Positions 3,309-37,922 are shown, numbered from the stretch's first letter. The stretch: 64,000 nucleotides of DNA from Chloroflexota bacterium (GCA_022561215.1 JADFRQ010000013.1:653-64652); one strand, 5' to 3'. Numbers and translations: made by a program. The notes: generated by a model not told the origin, from the sequence alone.

Positions 3309-3863
3309 ATGGCCTGGATCAAGATCATCCACGAAAACGAAGCGGACGGCGAACTTAAAGCCGCTTATGCGGAACTAACCGAGCCGTGGGGCGGTGTGGA
3401 TAACATCATGAAGATCCACAGCCTCAACCCACCGTCCTTGGCGGGGCATTCCGCCCTCTACCGAACTTTGATGCGCGGCCATTCCGACCTGACAATCGTG
3501 CAGCGCGAGATGATCGCAGTTGTGGTCTCAGCGCTCAACCGCTGTCACTATTGACTGCGACATCACGGAGCGGGACTCCGTCGACAGACGCGTGACGCCG
3601 AGCTGGTCGAACAACTGATGGCGGACTTCCGTCAGGCGCCATTGAAAAGCTCAGATCGGGAGATGCTTGACTATGCCACGAAACTGACGCGAGAGCCGTG
3701 GAACATGGCGGAACAGGATGTCATCTCCCTGCGTGAAGCGGGCTTCAGCGATGAGGCAATCCTCGATATCAACCAGGTTACGGGTTACTATGCCTTCGTA
3801 AATCGGCTGGCGGATGGCCTCGGTGTTGAGCTGGAGGCGTTTTGGAAAGAGGGAAGAGAGTAG
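3309..3863 (+). CDS. AhpD-like / carboxymuconolactone-decarboxylase-family peroxidase-related protein, candidate selenoprotein (in-frame TGA at 3552-3554)
   Basis: ORFs 3309-3554 and 3618-3863 are in the same frame with no other stop between them. The joined sequence reads ...SALNRCHY-TGA-LRHHGAGLRR..., so the TGA falls on the second Cys of the family motif C-x-Y-C-x-x-HH. The C-terminal half (REPW..., INQVTGYYAFVNR) is also typical of this family. Confidence 0.6.
3565..3581 (+). promoter_or_regulatory. SECIS-like hairpin downstream of in-frame TGA
   Basis: ACGGAG-CGGGA-CTCCGT: a 6-bp stem with a G-rich 5-nt loop, starting 10 nt after the TGA at 3552-3554. Confidence 0.4.
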
Positions 3864-5246: not shown

Positions 5247-5337
5247 AACCCATCCTATCCACGATGACATAGCACTAGTGGCGAATCGCCGGAGATGGGC
5301 TCGAGACCGCTAGACAAAAATCGAGTTGAGGTTGAGA

Positions 5338-8131: not shown

Positions 8132-10180
8132 CTAAGCGTCAGTTTTCGTGTCGTCACCCTGCACCATCTGGCGAATGTGCTCGACGACATCCGGGTTGGC
8201 GAGTGTGGTGACGTCACCGACATCCCGTCCGTTGGATATGGCGGTCAGGATGCGACGCATGATTTTTCCCGACCGCGTTTTGGGCATATCGGGCACGATC
8301 CATACGTTTTTGGGGCGCGCGATCTTACCAATGCTCTCTTCGATGGCGCGCACCACCGCCGCCTCGATCTTCTTTGAGGCCTTTGTATTAGGCTTTAATG
8401 AGATGTACATATCGGGGACGCGTCCTTTTATTTCGTCGCGCAGCGGAACCACGGCCGCCTCCGCCACCTCTTTCACGATCAAGCTAGCCGACTCCAGCTC
8501 CTTCGTACCGAGGCGGTGACCGGCTACATTGATCACGTCATCGACGCGACCCAGGATGCGGTAGTAGCCGTCCTCCGCCAGCACGGCAGCATCACCGGTA
8601 AGGTATGGCCAGTCACGCCAGTCCTTGCTCTCAGGGTCCTTGTTGTAACGCGCGTAGTAGGTCTCGACGAAACGGTCATGATCGCCCCATATGGTCTGGA
8701 ACGCTCCTGGCCACGGATTGCGGATACAAATGTTTCCCGCCGTGCTACCGGGCGGGACCTCGTTGCCATCATCATCGTAGATTATGGGATGAATCCCGGG
8801 AACGGCCGGGCCTGTGCTCCCGGGTTTCATGGGGTGCAGGGCGGGCATGGTGCTGCACAGGAATCCGCCGGTCTCCGTCTGCCACCAGGTATCGACGATG
8901 ACCGCCTCCCCTTTGCCAACGGAATGGTAGTACCAGCGCCATACCTCAGGTTCGATTGGTTCCCCCACCGTAGTCATGTGTTTGAATTTAAAGTTGTATT
9001 TGGCGGGCTCATCGGGGCCGGCCTTGCGCAGCGTGCGCACCGTGGTGGGAGCGGTGTGAAAAATATTGACATTTAACTGCTCCGCGATGCGCCAGGGTCG
9101 ACCGGCGTCGGGATACGTGGGGACTCCCTCATACAACACGCCGGTCGCCCCAAGCGCCAACGGCCCATACACGATGTAGGAGTGCCCGGTGATCCAGCCA
9201 ATATCCGCCATGCACCAATACACATCCTCAGGGTGGATGTCCTGGATGTACTTCGAGGTGCCGGCTGCGTAGGCCAGATAGCCACCGGTCGAGTGCTGGC
9301 AGCCCTTCGGTTGGCCGGTCGTCCCGCTCGTGTACATCAAGAACAGCGGCGCCTCCGCCGGCATAGGAATCGGGTCAACGCGAACTCCGCGGTAGTCCGC
9401 CAGCAGTTCGTCCACAAAGAAGTCGCGTTGCTCAACCATCTTGCTCCTGGATTGATATTCGCCCTGTTTCCGACGCCAGACGAGCATCTTCTCGACTTCC
9501 TGGCCCAAATCCCTGGCGCTGGCGATTGCCAGGTCGCCGTTCACGCGGTGATCGAGCAGCTTCCCGTTGCGATAGTAGCTGTCCATCGTGATAAGCACTT
9601 TGCTGCCCGAATCGGCGATGCGCTCCCCGCAGGCGTGACCGCTGAATCCGCCGAATACCACGGAGTGGATGATGCCCAGGCGCGCACAGGCCAGCATCGT
9701 GATGGGCAGCTCCAGCACCATAGGCATATGTATAGTGACGCGGTCTCCCGCCTTAAGCCCACAATGATCACGCAGCAGCGCCGCAAATTCGTTGACGCGC
9801 ACATAAAGCTCCTGATAGGTCAGCACAACGTGGGGTTCGTCCTCCGGCTCCGGGACCCAGATAAAGGCGGCCTTGTTGCCATGTTGCTGCAAGTGACGGT
9901 CGACACAGTTGTAGGAGGCATTGATCAGCCCTCCCACGAACCACTTCCAGGAGGGAGCTGCGCTGGTGTCCAGCATGGTGTGCCAGTAGCGCTCCCAATC
10001 CAGCAGATCGGCGTACTCCTTGAAACAATCGGGGAAATTCTCCAGGCTGAAGCGCTGGAAAATCTCTGCATCGGTCATGTTGGCTTGGGCGATGAAGCCT
10101 GCTGTGGGCGCGAACTTGTTCTCCTCCTGCCAATGCACGGCGATCTGGGCCTCGCTCACTCTGAGCTCTTTGTCAGTCAT
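8132..10180 (-). CDS. acs: acetyl-CoA synthetase (AMP-forming acetate--CoA ligase family)
   Basis: 682 aa. Motifs YTSGTTGQPKG, WWQTETGG, NCVDRH and the C-terminal PKTRSGKIMRR are diagnostic of Acs-type adenylate-forming enzymes. Exact substrate (acetate or propionate) is not determinable here. Confidence 0.85.
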   Translation of the reverse strand: MTDKELRVSEAQIAVHWQEENKFAPTAGFIAQANMTDAEIFQRFSLENFPDCFKEYADLLDWERYWHTMLDTSAAPSWKWFVGGLINASYNCVDRHLQQHGNKAAFIWVPEPEDEPHVVLTYQELYVRVNEFAALLRDHCGLKAGDRVTIHMPMVLELPITMLACARLGIIHSVVFGGFSGHACGERIADSGSKVLITMDSYYRNGKLLDHRVNGDLAIASARDLGQEVEKMLVWRRKQGEYQSRSKMVEQRDFFVDELLADYRGVRVDPIPMPAEAPLFLMYTSGTTGQPKGCQHSTGGYLAYAAGTSKYIQDIHPEDVYWCMADIGWITGHSYIVYGPLALGATGVLYEGVPTYPDAGRPWRIAEQLNVNIFHTAPTTVRTLRKAGPDEPAKYNFKFKHMTTVGEPIEPEVWRWYYHSVGKGEAVIVDTWWQTETGGFLCSTMPALHPMKPGSTGPAVPGIHPIIYDDDGNEVPPGSTAGNICIRNPWPGAFQTIWGDHDRFVETYYARYNKDPESKDWRDWPYLTGDAAVLAEDGYYRILGRVDDVINVAGHRLGTKELESASLIVKEVAEAAVVPLRDEIKGRVPDMYISLKPNTKASKKIEAAVVRAIEESIGKIARPKNVWIVPDMPKTRSGKIMRRILTAISNGRDVGDVTTLANPDVVEHIRQMVQGDDTKTDA

Positions 10181-16125: not shown

Positions 16126-17466
16126 ATGCACAGATTGAATTTCCCACGAATGATCATCATGGGCATGTTGCTACTCGTGAGCTGTGTGTCGCCTCCAGGA
16201 GAAGATTTGCAAATCAGCCCGGTCTCACCGACGAATTCGAGCACCGAAAGCGGTCCCGTTCATACGGGTACTATTCCCGAACAAGCAGACATCCTTGCCG
16301 CCTATACCTACCAACAAGCGGACGGCAATCGGTTTTTGCCAGGCAAGGGAACAATACGCAATTCTCAGCCGTTGGATATTGCTTTAACGGGACGGCCGAT
16401 CTGGCTCGTCGCCGCGCCGCTGAACGAAGGGAGCATCTGGGTGGCTGTTCTCGCCGATGGAAATGTGCAGGCCTTCCTTGTTTCCGGAAGGATTGTCGAA
16501 TCGGCAGAGATTACGCCCGCGCGGCTACCGGTGGGGATGCCGCCCATGCTCATCATCGAAAAGGGACTGCCGCAGTTGCTCACGAACCCTGCCGAGGGGG
16601 GATCAACGCTTTCCCACCCCGTCCGATTTTCCGAATCCGTCCTTTATCTTACGCAAGAAGGCGATCTCGTGGCGTGGGAAAACGCTGAAGTTGGCCGTTT
16701 GGCGCTAAATATCTTGCGCGACGCGCGCCTGCTCGAAGATGAATTCGGGCGCCTGCTTTTTCTGGGCGATCCGACGGGCGATTATGGGCACGCTGTGCTT
16801 GGCGATGCTCTCGAAGCCCGTAGCATCACGCTGGTCGAAACTTCGCCGTCATTGCGTGTAGTCAATAAAATATTGATTCCTGCACCCGATGTTATCGAGG
16901 GCATCGCGCCGATTTGGACGGACATAACCGGCGACGGAAAACGCGAGATCATCGTCACCCTAAGCAATGCCCAGGAAGGCGCACGCATCGTCGTCTATGA
17001 CGAAGAAGGAGCGCAGGTTGCCATGGGACCATCGATTGGCCAGGGGAGCCGTTGGCGTCATCAGCTGGTTGTGGCGCCCTTCGGTCCAGCAGGTGAGCTG
17101 GAGCTTGTTGATGTGCTCACACCGCATATCGGTGGGGTGGTTGAATTTTATCAACTGGTTGGCGAGCGGCTGGAGATCGTCGCCCGCGTGCCCGGTTACA
17201 GTTCTCACGTGATCGGCTCTCGCAACCTGGATCAAGCACTCGCAGGAGATTTTGACGGCGACGGTAGCGTAGAACTTCTCGTCCCGAACAGAGCGCAGGA
17301 AATGCTGGGGGCGATCCGGCGCACTAATGATGGTGCGCAAGCCGTTTGGACACTCTCCATCGGGGGAAGACTGAGCACAAATTTGGTGGGGGTGTCATTG
17401 CCGGATGGGGGACTGCTTGTCGGTGTTGGGCGGGAGGATAATATCCTCAGACTCTGGCTGCCGTAG
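16126..17466 (+). CDS. FG-GAP/VCBS-repeat lipoprotein
   Basis: Lipobox LLLVSCV after the ATG at 16126. Ca-binding-like repeat motifs DITGDGKREIIV and GDFDGDGSVELLV. Confidence 0.7.
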   Translation: MHRLNFPRMIIMGMLLLVSCVSPPGEDLQISPVSPTNSSTESGPVHTGTIPEQADILAAYTYQQADGNRFLPGKGTIRNSQPLDIALTGRPIWLVAAPLNEGSIWVAVLADGNVQAFLVSGRIVESAEITPARLPVGMPPMLIIEKGLPQLLTNPAEGGSTLSHPVRFSESVLYLTQEGDLVAWENAEVGRLALNILRDARLLEDEFGRLLFLGDPTGDYGHAVLGDALEARSITLVETSPSLRVVNKILIPAPDVIEGIAPIWTDITGDGKREIIVTLSNAQEGARIVVYDEEGAQVAMGPSIGQGSRWRHQLVVAPFGPAGELELVDVLTPHIGGVVEFYQLVGERLEIVARVPGYSSHVIGSRNLDQALAGDFDGDGSVELLVPNRAQEMLGAIRRTNDGAQAVWTLSIGGRLSTNLVGVSLPDGGLLVGVGREDNILRLWLP

Positions 17467-18388: not shown

Positions 18389-18675
18389 ACCGTGCCCGTC
18401 AGCAGGCGATCCCGCCAATCATCCGCACCCGCTCCCTCACCAACCAGCCAACCCTGCTTGCTGGTTTCGGCCGCGCCAGGAAATCTAGCGCAAGAATACG
18501 CGCCATGGGAGGATTGCGGATAGTGAAACTCCGAATGATGATTGCTTCCATCACTTCTTCGACCAATTCTCCCTATGTACTGTTCGCAACAGTATGCAAT
18601 CATGGCTGCATGTCATAATTTTAGAATACGTTTTGTTCATGGCAATCTTGCCGCCTTCCAAAAGGAGAGGTCCCA

Positions 18676-19875
18676 GTGCGCAGGAGCAGGAATTCCCCAG
18701 CGATTGAAATTGCCCTCAATCGAGCAGTTCCCCTAGGCCTTCTTTTTATGTTGGCTCTGTCGAGCTGTGGAGCAAATCTGCCCCAAGTTCCGAACCAGGA
18801 GCAACCATCTCCGCAGGAAATGCCTGATCAGGTGCCAAGTGACATTCCGCAAAAAAAACCTATTGTAGAGATTCCTTCGCTCACACCACCATCTGAACAA
18901 GGTGGGATAAACACATCATTTATCCGTGATAAGGTGACCGAAGGAAATGGAAACTGGCCCTTCGTACCACTCGACAATCCGGAATTTGTCACCGCCGATC
19001 AGGCCACGTATATCGGAGCTCTCGACCTTGTGCTCGGGGTCTCTTTGTATGGTGAAAGCAAGGCCTACCCCATCAACATGATGTGGTTTCATCATGTGGC
19101 CAATGACACGATTGGGGGTCATCCCATCGCGGTAACCTACTGAATAGTCTGTAGTTCAGGGGTTGGGTTCAACCCCGTAATCGATGGTCGAAGGTTGAAT
19201 TTTGAACTCTTTGGTCTCTACAATGCGGTGATGGTGATGAGCGACAGAGAGACGGGGAGCATATGGTCTCATATAGGGGGCACGGCCCTCTATGGGCCGA
19301 GCAAGGGAGCCCAGATGGAGCTGCTGCCACTCCAGCTTACAAGCTGGGAAAAATGGCTGGAGCTACATCCCGATACATTGGTCTTATCTAACGATACGCC
19401 TTATCAGGAATGGTACACCAACATAAGCCTTGGGAGTTCATCCCTGGGCCCCGAATTTGTCGCTAGCATTGTCTACTGGGACACGCGCCTTACGCACAAC
19501 CGCTTGGTTTTGGGTGTAACCGTTGATCAGGCATTCCGCGCCTATCCGCTCGACAGGGTTGCCGCCTCCGGCGGTGTTGTCAACGATATTTTGGCAGATC
19601 GACCTGTTGTTGTGGTGGTAGATGATCAGAGCGTATTCTCCATTGCGTTCTCAAGGGAGATAAACGGGCAAGTGTTGAACTTCGAACGTACAGGCGCAGA
19701 TTCTCTTCAACTCGTCGATAAAGAAACTGGTTCCATTTGGAACCTCGAAGGTCTTGCAATCGATGGGCCCCTGGAGGGAGAGTCTTTGTCCTTTGTCACC
19801 TCCTTCATCACCGAATGGTATGGTTGGTCCGCCTATCATCCCGAGACCGAAATCTACGCGATCGCGAATCCTTGA
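18676..19875 (+). CDS. DUF3179-family lipoprotein, candidate selenoprotein (in-frame TGA at 19141-19143)
   Basis: GTG start after an AGGAGAGG RBS; lipobox LALSSCG. ORFs 18676-19143 and 19195-19875 share one frame with no other stop between them. The junction reads PIAVTY-TGA-IVCSSGVGF...LYNAVMVMSDRETGSIWSH, matching the DUF3179 core (TYCPLC.SG...D.ETGS.WSQ, from memory) with TGA on the first Cys. Confidence 0.6.
19159..19176 (+). promoter_or_regulatory. SECIS-like hairpin downstream of in-frame TGA
   Basis: GGGGTTG-GGTT-CAACCCC: a perfect 7-bp stem with a GGUU loop, starting 15 nt after the TGA. Confidence 0.45.
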
Positions 19876-20382: not shown

Positions 20383-21496
20383 TTATTCCTTTCGAAAGGA
20401 AAGTGGACTTGTGCGGGCTCCGGCCAGGTCGACCAGCTTCTCTGCCGTCTTGGCATACAGCTGCGTGGTGCGGATGCTGCGGTGGTTGAGGAAGCGCTGT
20501 ACCTGGTCGATGGGGACCCCTTCGCCGAGCATCTGCGTCGCCCGCCAATGACGAAAATCATGCGGGTGAATATGCGGCAGCCCCAGTTTTCGAACAGCAT
20601 TGTGGATCATGCGCCACACGGCATTGGATGAAAACGGTTTCCCACGGTACTCCGGCCGCGTGCGCGCGTGGCTTACAAAGAGCGCAGCTGCACCGGGATC
20701 GTTCCTTAATCCCAGATACTTGCGCATCGCTTCCAGGGTTGGCTCCGTGAAGCGCAGGATCACCTGTCGGCCGTAACGACCGCGGCCCTTGCCGCGCACA
20801 GAGATTTGCCAGATTGCCTGCGCGTTCAAGCGCGCTCCACGCACCTCATCCGCAGTGATGCGTAAAATTTCACTTACACGTGCCCCGCTATCCGCCAGCG
20901 CATAGAGCAGGCTTCTGTTGCGGCTGTTCTCCAGCCGCCTGCGATGCGCTTCTTTTAAAGGGAGATCATCCGCGATCTCGATGGCATCAAAGGCATGGAT
21001 CAGCTCTTCGATGCCCTCCGGCGGCTCCGGAGCAGAATCCCGTGATTGTGACATTGGAATGTAGGTGCTCAGCCTGCGCTGCGCCTTGCTGATTGCTGCT
21101 GATGCGGGAAAGCGCTCGTGGAGCAGGAGCTCATCAGCGAGATAGCGAAACCAGGAGATCAACGCCTGGCCGTACAAACGCACGGTTGCAGGTTCGAGAG
21201 GCAGCCCTGAGCCAGCAGGTGAGACCGACTTTTTTACCTCCTGCCCCAGGTAGTTGACAAACCAGGCCAGCATATTGACGTCGTTAGTGGAGGCGCCCAG
21301 CTCGGAGAGCAATCGCTCCTGCGGGGACGGGCCGGTGAAGGACAGGCTTGCGGATAACGGCGATCCTTCAAGAAAAGCATAAAAATGCTTCACCGCATAG
21401 CCGTAGGTCTGCAGCGATGCCGGACTGAGATTGCTTTGCGAACAGAAGGTAGCGAATGATTCTTTGAGTGTGAAACTGCGGTCAGTAGTCATCATA
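20383..21496 (-). CDS. tyrosine recombinase / phage-type site-specific integrase
   Basis: The catalytic set is visible: GARVSE (R), KGRG (K), HDFRHWRA (HxxR), LNHRSIRTT (H) and QLYAK (Y). I prefer the start at ATGATG 21496; the longest ORF extends to 21642. Confidence 0.85.
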
Positions 21497-21559
21497 ATTT
21501 TTGAATAGAGTGTGTTGCATGAAATGTTCCGTTGATTCAATTCTTTATGATTATCGTAC

Positions 21560-21678
21560 GGGCGAAGCACACGGCTAGCAGGCACTCGCCTTCCAGCTTG
21601 GGAGATTGGACAACTTCTGGTTGTTTTCCCAATCTCCTGCAAAGAGAAAACTCACTCCAATTTGAACGTGCTTCGCCC
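21560..21678. other. long-range inverted repeat enclosing a 14-bp hairpin, adjacent to the integrase 5' end
   Basis: GGGCGAAGCAC (21560-21570) pairs with GTGCTTCGCCC (21668-21678). The inner hairpin is GGAGATTGG-ACAAC-ttctg-GTTGT-tttc-CCAATCTCC (21601-21637). Confidence 0.35.
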
Positions 21679-37004: not shown

Positions 37005-37604
37005 TCAGGGATACGTTTCATCCAGGAGCACCAGGATTGCGGCTTCTGTCTGCTGGTAACCGCCTTCGCCAATGTGTTTGTAGCGAATGTGACCCTTTTT
37101 ATCAATCAGATAAAGCGTAGGCCAATAGCGGTTTTTGTAGGCCGTCCAGGTTCGCCGGTCATTGTCCTGGGTGATCGGGTAAGTGATATCAAAACGAATG
37201 AGCGCTTCCTTTAAGTTTTCAATATCACGTTCATAGGAAAATTCAGGGTAATGATTGCCGATCACGACGAGACCCTTGTCGGCGTAGGTGTTGTGCCATT
37301 CCCTCAACGAGGGAATTACGTGTTCACAGTTTATTCAACCAAAGGTCCACATTTCAAGCAGGACGACACTGCCGCGCAGATTAGCGAGACGAAGGGGACC
37401 TTGCGTGTTGAGCCAGACTTCATTCTCAATCTCGGGCGCGGGGCCATAATCGTCTAGCAAAATCGACGCACTTTCCTGAGTAACTACCTGCTCCGGAGAA
37501 TCGTCCTGGATTATCTGCGGAGCAACTGAGGGCGCGGAACAGGCAGTGAGCAGCAAACTTATTCCCAACCCGACCCAAAAATACAGGCGGTTGAGGTTAT
37601 TCAT
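37005..37604 (-). CDS. TlpA-like thioredoxin-fold thiol:disulfide oxidoreductase lipoprotein, candidate selenoprotein (in-frame TGA at 37335-37337)
   Basis: Lipobox LLLTACS after the ATG at 37604. ORFs 37335-37700 and 37005-37307 share one frame. The junction reads VVLLEMWTFG-TGA-INCEHVIPSLREWHNTYADKGLVVIG, the classic W-x-x-x-C-x-x-C redox motif with TGA on the first Cys. Confidence 0.65.
37298..37316 (-). promoter_or_regulatory. SECIS-like hairpin downstream of in-frame TGA
   Basis: On the minus strand, ATTCCCTC-GTT-GAGGGAAT: a perfect 8-bp stem with a GUU loop, starting 18 nt after the TGA. Confidence 0.45.
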
Positions 37605-37922
37605 AGAGCCTTGGCTCGAGAGCATTATTGGTTCGCGCAAAACCCCATCCTTTTCAGGTAACCTGATCGCATGGTGATAGCGAGGGTTACGTTCCAACAA
37701 AAAAGAGTATAGTCTCCTATAGTATGACGGAGAAAGATTACAAAAGGATTACGAGTTTTACGAAGAAGATCCGCATCGGAACTAGCAAGTGATCAGTGAA
37801 CAGTAAGCAGGGACGCGAATACCTGCATTTGGCCACGATGAGGCAAAAACAAAAAAGCAGCGTTGAATACGGAAGCCTGAGAAAAACCATAGATCAAAGA
37901 TTTGGTGGAGGGACTACAATCG

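Follow-up and report, generated by a model that had tools for sequence, protein, structure and literature searches.

What does an in-frame TGA mean when it falls in the middle of a gene that is otherwise open from end to end? The question is raised by positions 18676-19875 of a 64-kb stretch of DNA from a Chloroflexota genome, probably a member of the Dehalococcoidia (the whole stretch is called the window below), where a gene of the DUF3179 family is interrupted at 19141-19143. The codon could be the mark of a dead gene or of a sequencing error, the true end of a first protein, a codon for a standard amino acid, or a codon for selenocysteine (Sec). We conclude that the locus is very probably the gene of a selenocysteine-containing DUF3179 lipoprotein, in which this UGA is read as Sec. 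The preliminary description had already proposed a selenoprotein gene, and this reading is strongly supported by the Cys that occupies the same column in homologs, by the same TGA in 92 of 92 related loci, by the low dN/dS and by a covarying hairpin downstream of the codon.

Structure of the gene

The two open reading frames which had been described as lying in the same frame and parted only by the TGA at 19141-19143 are indeed one frame of 400 codons on the plus strand (18676-19875), with this TGA as the sole internal stop and a terminal TGA at 19873-19875. The junction at the internal TGA reads ...GGHPIAVTY-TGA-IVCSSGVGFNPV.... Frame, Pfam match and the architecture of orthologs together give a complete DUF3179 selenoprotein gene (18676-19875, +) of 399 residues, with the predicted Sec as residue 156.

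The gene had also been called intact apart from the TGA, and each part of that statement was found in place. By direct reading of the sequence, a Shine-Dalgarno-like site, AAGGAGAGG, lies at 18662-18670 (+), and the GTG start follows 5 nt later, at 18676. The translated N-terminus, MRRSRNSPAIEIALNRAVPLGLLFMLALSSC (18676-18768, +), is probably a lipoprotein signal peptide with the lipobox L-S-S-C at residues 28-31 and Cys 31 as the lipidated residue. Orthologs begin with a similar hydrophobic segment ending in Cys (...LIAVSCGGG in L001, ...LAGC/LTGC in P0001/P0002). The DUF3179 domain spans residues 99-391 (18970-19848, +) and contains an internal tandem duplication, as seen from Pfam, tblastn and an AF2 model. 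When Cys was put at the TGA, the match to PF11376 reached E=1.4e-68 and 231.9 bits against a cut-off of 27, and covered positions 7-292 of the 292 in the profile.

Directly downstream of the DUF3179 gene and on the other strand, a tyrosine recombinase of the phage-integrase family (PF00589, E=1.1e-27) was found at 20383-21642 (-).

The TGA codon in homologous proteins

In the preliminary description the TGA took the place of the first Cys in a CxxC pair, and this placement agrees with an alignment of the query with 25 full-length DUF3179 homologs (alignment A1). The TGA column is occupied by Cys in 24 of the 25 homologs and by Ser in the remaining one, so that the first Cys of the conserved CxxC is replaced by TGA, giving U-x-x-C. 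The in-frame TGA (19141-19143, +) is thus the predicted Sec codon at the first position of this motif. The resolving or partner Cys three residues on, residue 159 (C159), is encoded by TGT at 19150-19152 (+) and is invariant in the alignment.

The other hallmarks of DUF3179 are present as well. The motif (C/U)xxC follows ...VTY, with the C156 column conserved in at least 90% of the sequences, and the D, T and W columns are kept in both D-x-E-T-G-S-x-W repeats. A nearly invariant His lies 17 residues before the U/CxxC (His139 in the query). The best matches in the database showed 57% identity to the whole protein, and 70% where a C-terminal fragment was compared.

Conservation of the TGA and selection on the coding sequence

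Among the best 120 database matches, 87 are C-terminal fragments of 223-273 aa (one of 410 aa), which cover 52-61% of the query. All 37 of the fragments that were aligned start at or just past the codon that comes after the motif column; many open with 'MVCSSGVGF...', where the GTG directly after the stop was called as start. The corresponding N-terminal pieces of about 150 aa are called as separate DUF3179 ORFs in the public data. Fragment starts at the TGA codon are the signature of gene callers that halt at a Sec-UGA.

The preliminary description had suggested looking for TGA-bearing orthologs in related genomes, and they proved to be numerous. Related loci were read as DNA from fragment-bearing contigs (L001-L002), from GTDB (L003-L010, all of them Dehalococcoidia/Chloroflexota MAGs), from 80 metagenome loci (L011-L090) and from long contigs (L093-L094). 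TGA occupies the identical codon in 92 of 92 loci (L001-L090, L093 and L094) at protein identities of 38-70%, a proportion which describes the clade of the query and not the whole DUF3179 family, as the loci were gathered via the alignment of Sec-clade fragments. Where the contig permits, the TGA is flanked by about 130-300 open codons upstream and about 236-258 downstream. Five non-Sec relatives were read in the same manner, with TGC in three (L091, L092 and L096), TGT in one (L097, protein P0018, site 706) and TCA in one (L095, protein P0011, site 569, on a contig with 3x coverage).

Selection was estimated by the method of Nei and Gojobori from comparisons of the window with its orthologs and of close ortholog pairs, with dS unsaturated. 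dN/dS was 0.07-0.18 on each side of the TGA, over the 62 codons that precede it and over the approximately 236 that follow. Ratios this low in both parts mean that the two halves of the gene are being kept as coding sequence, and a pseudogene is thereby excluded.

One of the fragment-bearing contigs (L002; ENA ERZ25766727, a 5x long-read assembly) holds extra copies or remnants of DUF3179 near its intact Sec-form gene, at 5267, 6757, 8639, 8829-9344 and 16481-17035. At the motif column, TGA is found in some of them and TGT in one; further stops are present, and transposases are interspersed. These extra copies could be decaying paralogs or assembly errors.

A conserved hairpin downstream of the TGA

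A hairpin of 7 bp had been reported 15 nt downstream of the TGA, with its loop about 25 nt away, and we read it at 19159-19176 (+). The sequence GGGGTTG-GGTT-CAACCCC forms a perfect 7-bp stem (19159-19165 with 19170-19176) and a GGUU loop (19166-19169) inside the codons for G-V-G-F-N-P; the stem starts 15 nt past the TGA, and from the U of the UGA to the first base of the loop the distance is 25 nt. In the bacterial SECIS consensus model of bSECISearch, the loop is found 16-37 nt from the UGA, and the distance of about 25 nt falls inside this range. The hairpin is present in both the MFE and the centroid structure of the 60 nt after the TGA. Folding of the single sequence gave z=-2.1 for these 60 nt and z=-1.3 for a segment with slightly different bounds. 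These values are a modest departure from chance, and the significance of the hairpin rests on the comparative data. The terminal UGA at 19873-19875 works as a stop and has no comparable hairpin.

The comparative data come from an alignment of 58 distinct segments of 63 nt (A3). In this alignment 98% of the cells of the 7-bp helix are paired, and three of its pairs show compensatory changes: columns 30-37 are CG in 34 sequences, UA in 22 and UG in one, with one mismatch; columns 31-36 are GC in 52 and AU in two; and columns 28-39 are GC in 48, GU in seven and AU in one. None of 500 shuffles equalled the observed pairing or covariation score, and pairing fell to 34-71% when the 3' arm was slid by 1-3 columns as a control. 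RNAalifold, run unguided on A3, predicted the same helix and no other. The first loop position is nearly always G, and the second is G or U in 57 of the 58 sequences. A lower helix that would pair the UGA itself with a Ser codon was considered and rejected; it is not conserved in the orthologs and was not predicted by RNAalifold.

The stem is written in the codons GGG GTY G.. ..C RAC CCY, and the codon usage within it is restricted. Gly is encoded by GGG in 58 of 58 sequences, the third base of Pro is only C or U, either of which pairs with G, and at Val the synonymous third base changes in concert with the first base of the codon for Asn or Asp. Such constraint at silent positions of the Gly, Pro and Val codons points to the RNA itself as a target of selection, over and above the demands of the peptide. 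The RNA structure also appears visibly to limit the choice of amino acid (Asn or Asp) inside GVGF(N/D)P.

The relatives that have lost the TGA behave in two ways. In those with TGC (L091, L092 and L096) the helix is lost, with 1-3 mismatches. In the relative with TGT (L097) and the one with TCA (L095) the hairpin is kept, and it is thus not strictly Sec-specific. The latter two may be recent losses of Sec with a fossil SECIS (L095 possibly reflecting a base-call error), or the peptide GVGF[N/D]P may itself partly hold the structure in place. Among Rfam models none matched, with gathering thresholds over the whole window and with permissive ones over 19120-19240, where only noise was returned.

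Selenocysteine decoding and other candidate genes in the window

The 64-kb window contains no tRNA and hence no tRNA-Sec, and no Pfam match to SelA, SelB or SelD was found among the 20 large ORFs scanned in it. A possible SelD near an ortholog was rejected: the 347-aa AIRS/AIRS_C gene located 1.2 kb from the ortholog on L093 is ThiL (NCBIfam, 280 bits against 54 for selD).

Of the 56 long ORFs of the window, about 20 terminate at TGA, and among them are genes whose Pfam match runs to the end of the profile, such as a penicillin amidase (673 of 675 profile positions) and a Cys_Met_Meta_PP gene (380 of 381). TGA is therefore an ordinary stop here, which rules out a reassigned code.

We scanned the window systematically for pairs of ORFs joined by a single stop and obtained two further convincing genes with a single TGA, both in catalogued selenoprotein families. 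One is a TlpA-like lipoprotein of the AhpC-TSA/Redoxin/Thioredoxin_8 type (37005-37625, -; Pfam E=2.5e-12) with the lipobox LLLTAC. Its TGA (37335-37337) is read in the context ...LLEMWTFG-TGA-INCEHV and would give UxxC at the CxxC of the thioredoxin fold. A perfect 8-bp hairpin, AUUCCCUC-GUU-GAGGGAAU (37298-37316), starts 18 nt past this TGA (z=-2.0). The other gene is CMD/AhpD-like (3309-3863, +; PF02627, E=5.4e-11), with TGA at 3552-3554 in the context ...SALNRCHY-TGA-LRHHG, which corresponds to CxxU, the motif listed for CMD-like selenoproteins. The candidate hairpin about 12 nt past its TGA (ACGGAG-CGGGA-CUCCGU) is weak, since it lies outside the MFE fold and its z is non-significant. Both genes look like selenoprotein genes. 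The preliminary description had set the DUF3179 gene against genuine pseudogenes of the window with several lesions each, and the view of the other interrupted genes as pseudogenes needs revisiting for at least these two.

Another link is offered by the ortholog L006, which belongs to Dehalococcoidia bacterium UBA1141. The MAG of UBA1141 is listed in BSepDB with 49 selenoprotein genes, among the largest bacterial selenoproteomes (PMC13326102). The use of TGA as a stop, the two extra candidates and the link to UBA1141 lend indirect support to Sec decoding by the genome of the window.

How the internal UGA is read

If the UGA is not a Sec codon, it may be a simple lesion, a TGC or TGT turned into TGA in a gene that is dead or, by sequencing error, in a gene that truly encodes Cys. 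TGA is one substitution away from either Cys codon, and the TCA of L095, on its contig of 3x coverage, shows that this codon is open to single-base variants or errors. A lesion of this kind would, however, have had to arise in 92 independent loci from many assemblies, which differ at 38-70% identity and keep their frames open on both sides, and it would leave no reason for the dN/dS of 0.07-0.18 downstream of the TGA or for a hairpin that is conserved and covaries. The comparative data effectively refute a pseudogene or sequencing error, and we regard it as extremely unlikely. The chance that the TGA is a true stop, which divides the locus into a 155-aa N-terminal lipoprotein and a C-terminal piece starting from TTG 19195 or an internal ATG, we also take to be negligible. 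Such a stop would hit a catalytic-type Cys column within a contiguous domain and split its CxxC, and the C-terminal piece alone would have no signal peptide. Automatic gene callers do annotate the two-piece arrangement in public data, and a weak promoter-like match lies at 19195-19224; but the restart sites vary among orthologs, from the codon right after the TGA to 11-30 codons further on, no conserved RBS stands ahead of the downstream piece, and the stretch from the TGA to the putative restarts is conserved as protein (CSSGVGF[ND]P).

Another possibility is that one of the standard amino acids (Trp, Gly or Cys) is inserted at the UGA, because the code has been reassigned or by readthrough that needs no SECIS. 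Some bacterial lineages are known to reassign UGA, and when selenium is scarce Cys can be misinserted at UGA-Sec codons; both points count in favour of this possibility. It is opposed by the approximately 20 of 56 long ORFs of the window, with the DUF3179 gene itself among them, which end at TGA, several of them at the end of the Pfam profile. It is further opposed by the position of the in-frame TGAs in the window, which occur only at redox Cys positions and with hairpins downstream (a weak one in the CMD-like gene). We consider this possibility very unlikely.

With the UGA read as Sec, the locus would be one intact gene whose product is exported and lipid-anchored, a DUF3179 protein with Sec-x-x-Cys in place of the Cys-x-x-Cys of the family. 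By what is presumably the standard bacterial route, SelB with Sec-tRNA(Sec) would bind the stem-loop that starts 15 nt past the UGA, and Sec would be delivered to the ribosome before release factor 2 terminates the chain.

Fold and possible function

In its AF2 model, the closest homolog of the Cys form (P0001) is an all-beta (mostly beta) tandem repeat with pLDDT >90 over the domain. This agrees with the internal duplication detected from second tblastn HSPs, in which repeat 1 aligns to repeat 2. Both repeats end in D-x-E-T-G-S-x-W, and the U/CxxC is carried by repeat 1 only.

Searches with the protein and with the model returned little. An NCBIfam scan of the protein assigned no family, a sequence-profile search of the PDB with A1 gave nothing relevant (best E=0.18, a ribosomal protein), and Foldseek of the AF2 model against the PDB gave no significant match (best E=0.024). 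Among local Foldseek matches, Rieske ferredoxins and Rieske domains recurred at the top, at a target-normalised TM of 0.5-0.6 over about 90-115 residues. Assignment as a Rieske [2Fe-2S] domain was rejected; no Pfam Rieske signal was seen up to E 10 in the half-domains, and the motif CxH...CxxH is absent, with HH...(U/C)xxC present. The Rieske likeness of the modelled DUF3179 fold may serve as a weak lead. A thioredoxin fold was also rejected, as the protein has no Pfam match to the Trx family and the model of the Cys-form homolog is all-beta.

The gene neighbourhood gives no functional clue, because no neighbour gene is conserved across the window, L001, L002, L091, L093 and L094. Homolog P0098 is fused to Thioredoxin/Redoxin/AhpC-TSA domains, and other homologs are fused to a cupin domain. 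Our best guess is that the protein has a redox-active or metal-binding U-x-x-C centre on the membrane's outer face, possibly together with His139. This guess is drawn from the mostly redox function of UxxC/CxxC in catalogued selenoproteins and from the homolog with the thioredoxin/AhpC-TSA fusion. It can be extended to a picture in which DUF3179 is an extracytoplasmic redox module that binds a metal or cluster, built of two beta domains that resemble Rieske domains, its active centre formed by Sec156, Cys159 and His139, and in which the Sec form would be standard across a large marine and subsurface clade of Dehalococcoidia and serve a cell-surface redox activity. The extended picture is speculative, and we think it improbable as a whole.

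Significance for annotation

The practical value of these results is in annotation. Most public members of the clade are split at the Sec codon (87 of the best 120 matches), and within this one 64-kb window standard callers would turn three genes into split genes or pseudogenes. The alignment of 58 sequences of the covarying mini-SECIS could seed a covariance model. The results further strengthen the case that the selenoproteomes of some Dehalococcoidia are large, with many exported redox proteins of the UxxC/CxxU type. As a discovery the locus has little weight: the literature and the NCBI naming rules already cover the family, its UxxC motif and the reading of the codon as Sec.

Comparison with known selenoproteins

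The preliminary description had suggested a possible new selenoprotein family, and this suggestion is excluded by the literature. DUF3179/PF11376 is given as a known prokaryotic selenoprotein family with the motif UxxC/T in reviews of 2022 and 2026 (PMC9312934, PMC13188914), both of which credit DUF3179 selenoproteins to Zhang & Gladyshev 2007 (NAR 35:4952, PMC1976440). That paper describes new selenoprotein families from Olavius symbiont metagenomes under provisional names; the name DUF3179 is absent from it, and the correspondence to OS_HP1/OS_HP2 is uncertain. The NCBI name of homolog P0110 is 'DUF3179 domain-containing (seleno)protein'. In the literature we found no report of experimental Se incorporation for any DUF3179 protein.

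The likeness of the hairpin to the SECIS of E. coli fdhF, which had been put forward for its geometry, holds in part. As in the elements of fdhF and fdnG, which SelB recognises, a stem-loop within the coding sequence follows closely on the UGA, its upper stem is rich in G+C, and the first loop base is nearly always G. Unlike the fdhF element of 38-40 nt, it is far smaller, with a 7-bp stem and a tetraloop, and has neither a conserved lower stem nor a bulged U.

Compared with the UxxC/CxxU selenoproteins of thioredoxin fold (TlpA/DsbE-like, AhpC/Prx-like and AhpD/CMD-like), the DUF3179 protein is alike in having Sec for one Cys of a CxxC and in being probably extracytoplasmic, but differs in its fold, which is predicted to be an all-beta tandem repeat. 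Compared with the catalogued DUF3179 selenoprotein family, it shares the full PF11376 profile, the Sec at the first position of U-x-x-C and the SECIS-type hairpin directly downstream, and nothing in it is different in kind. The gene is an ortholog new to this family, from a Dehalococcoidia-like clade as against the Olavius symbiont metagenomes.
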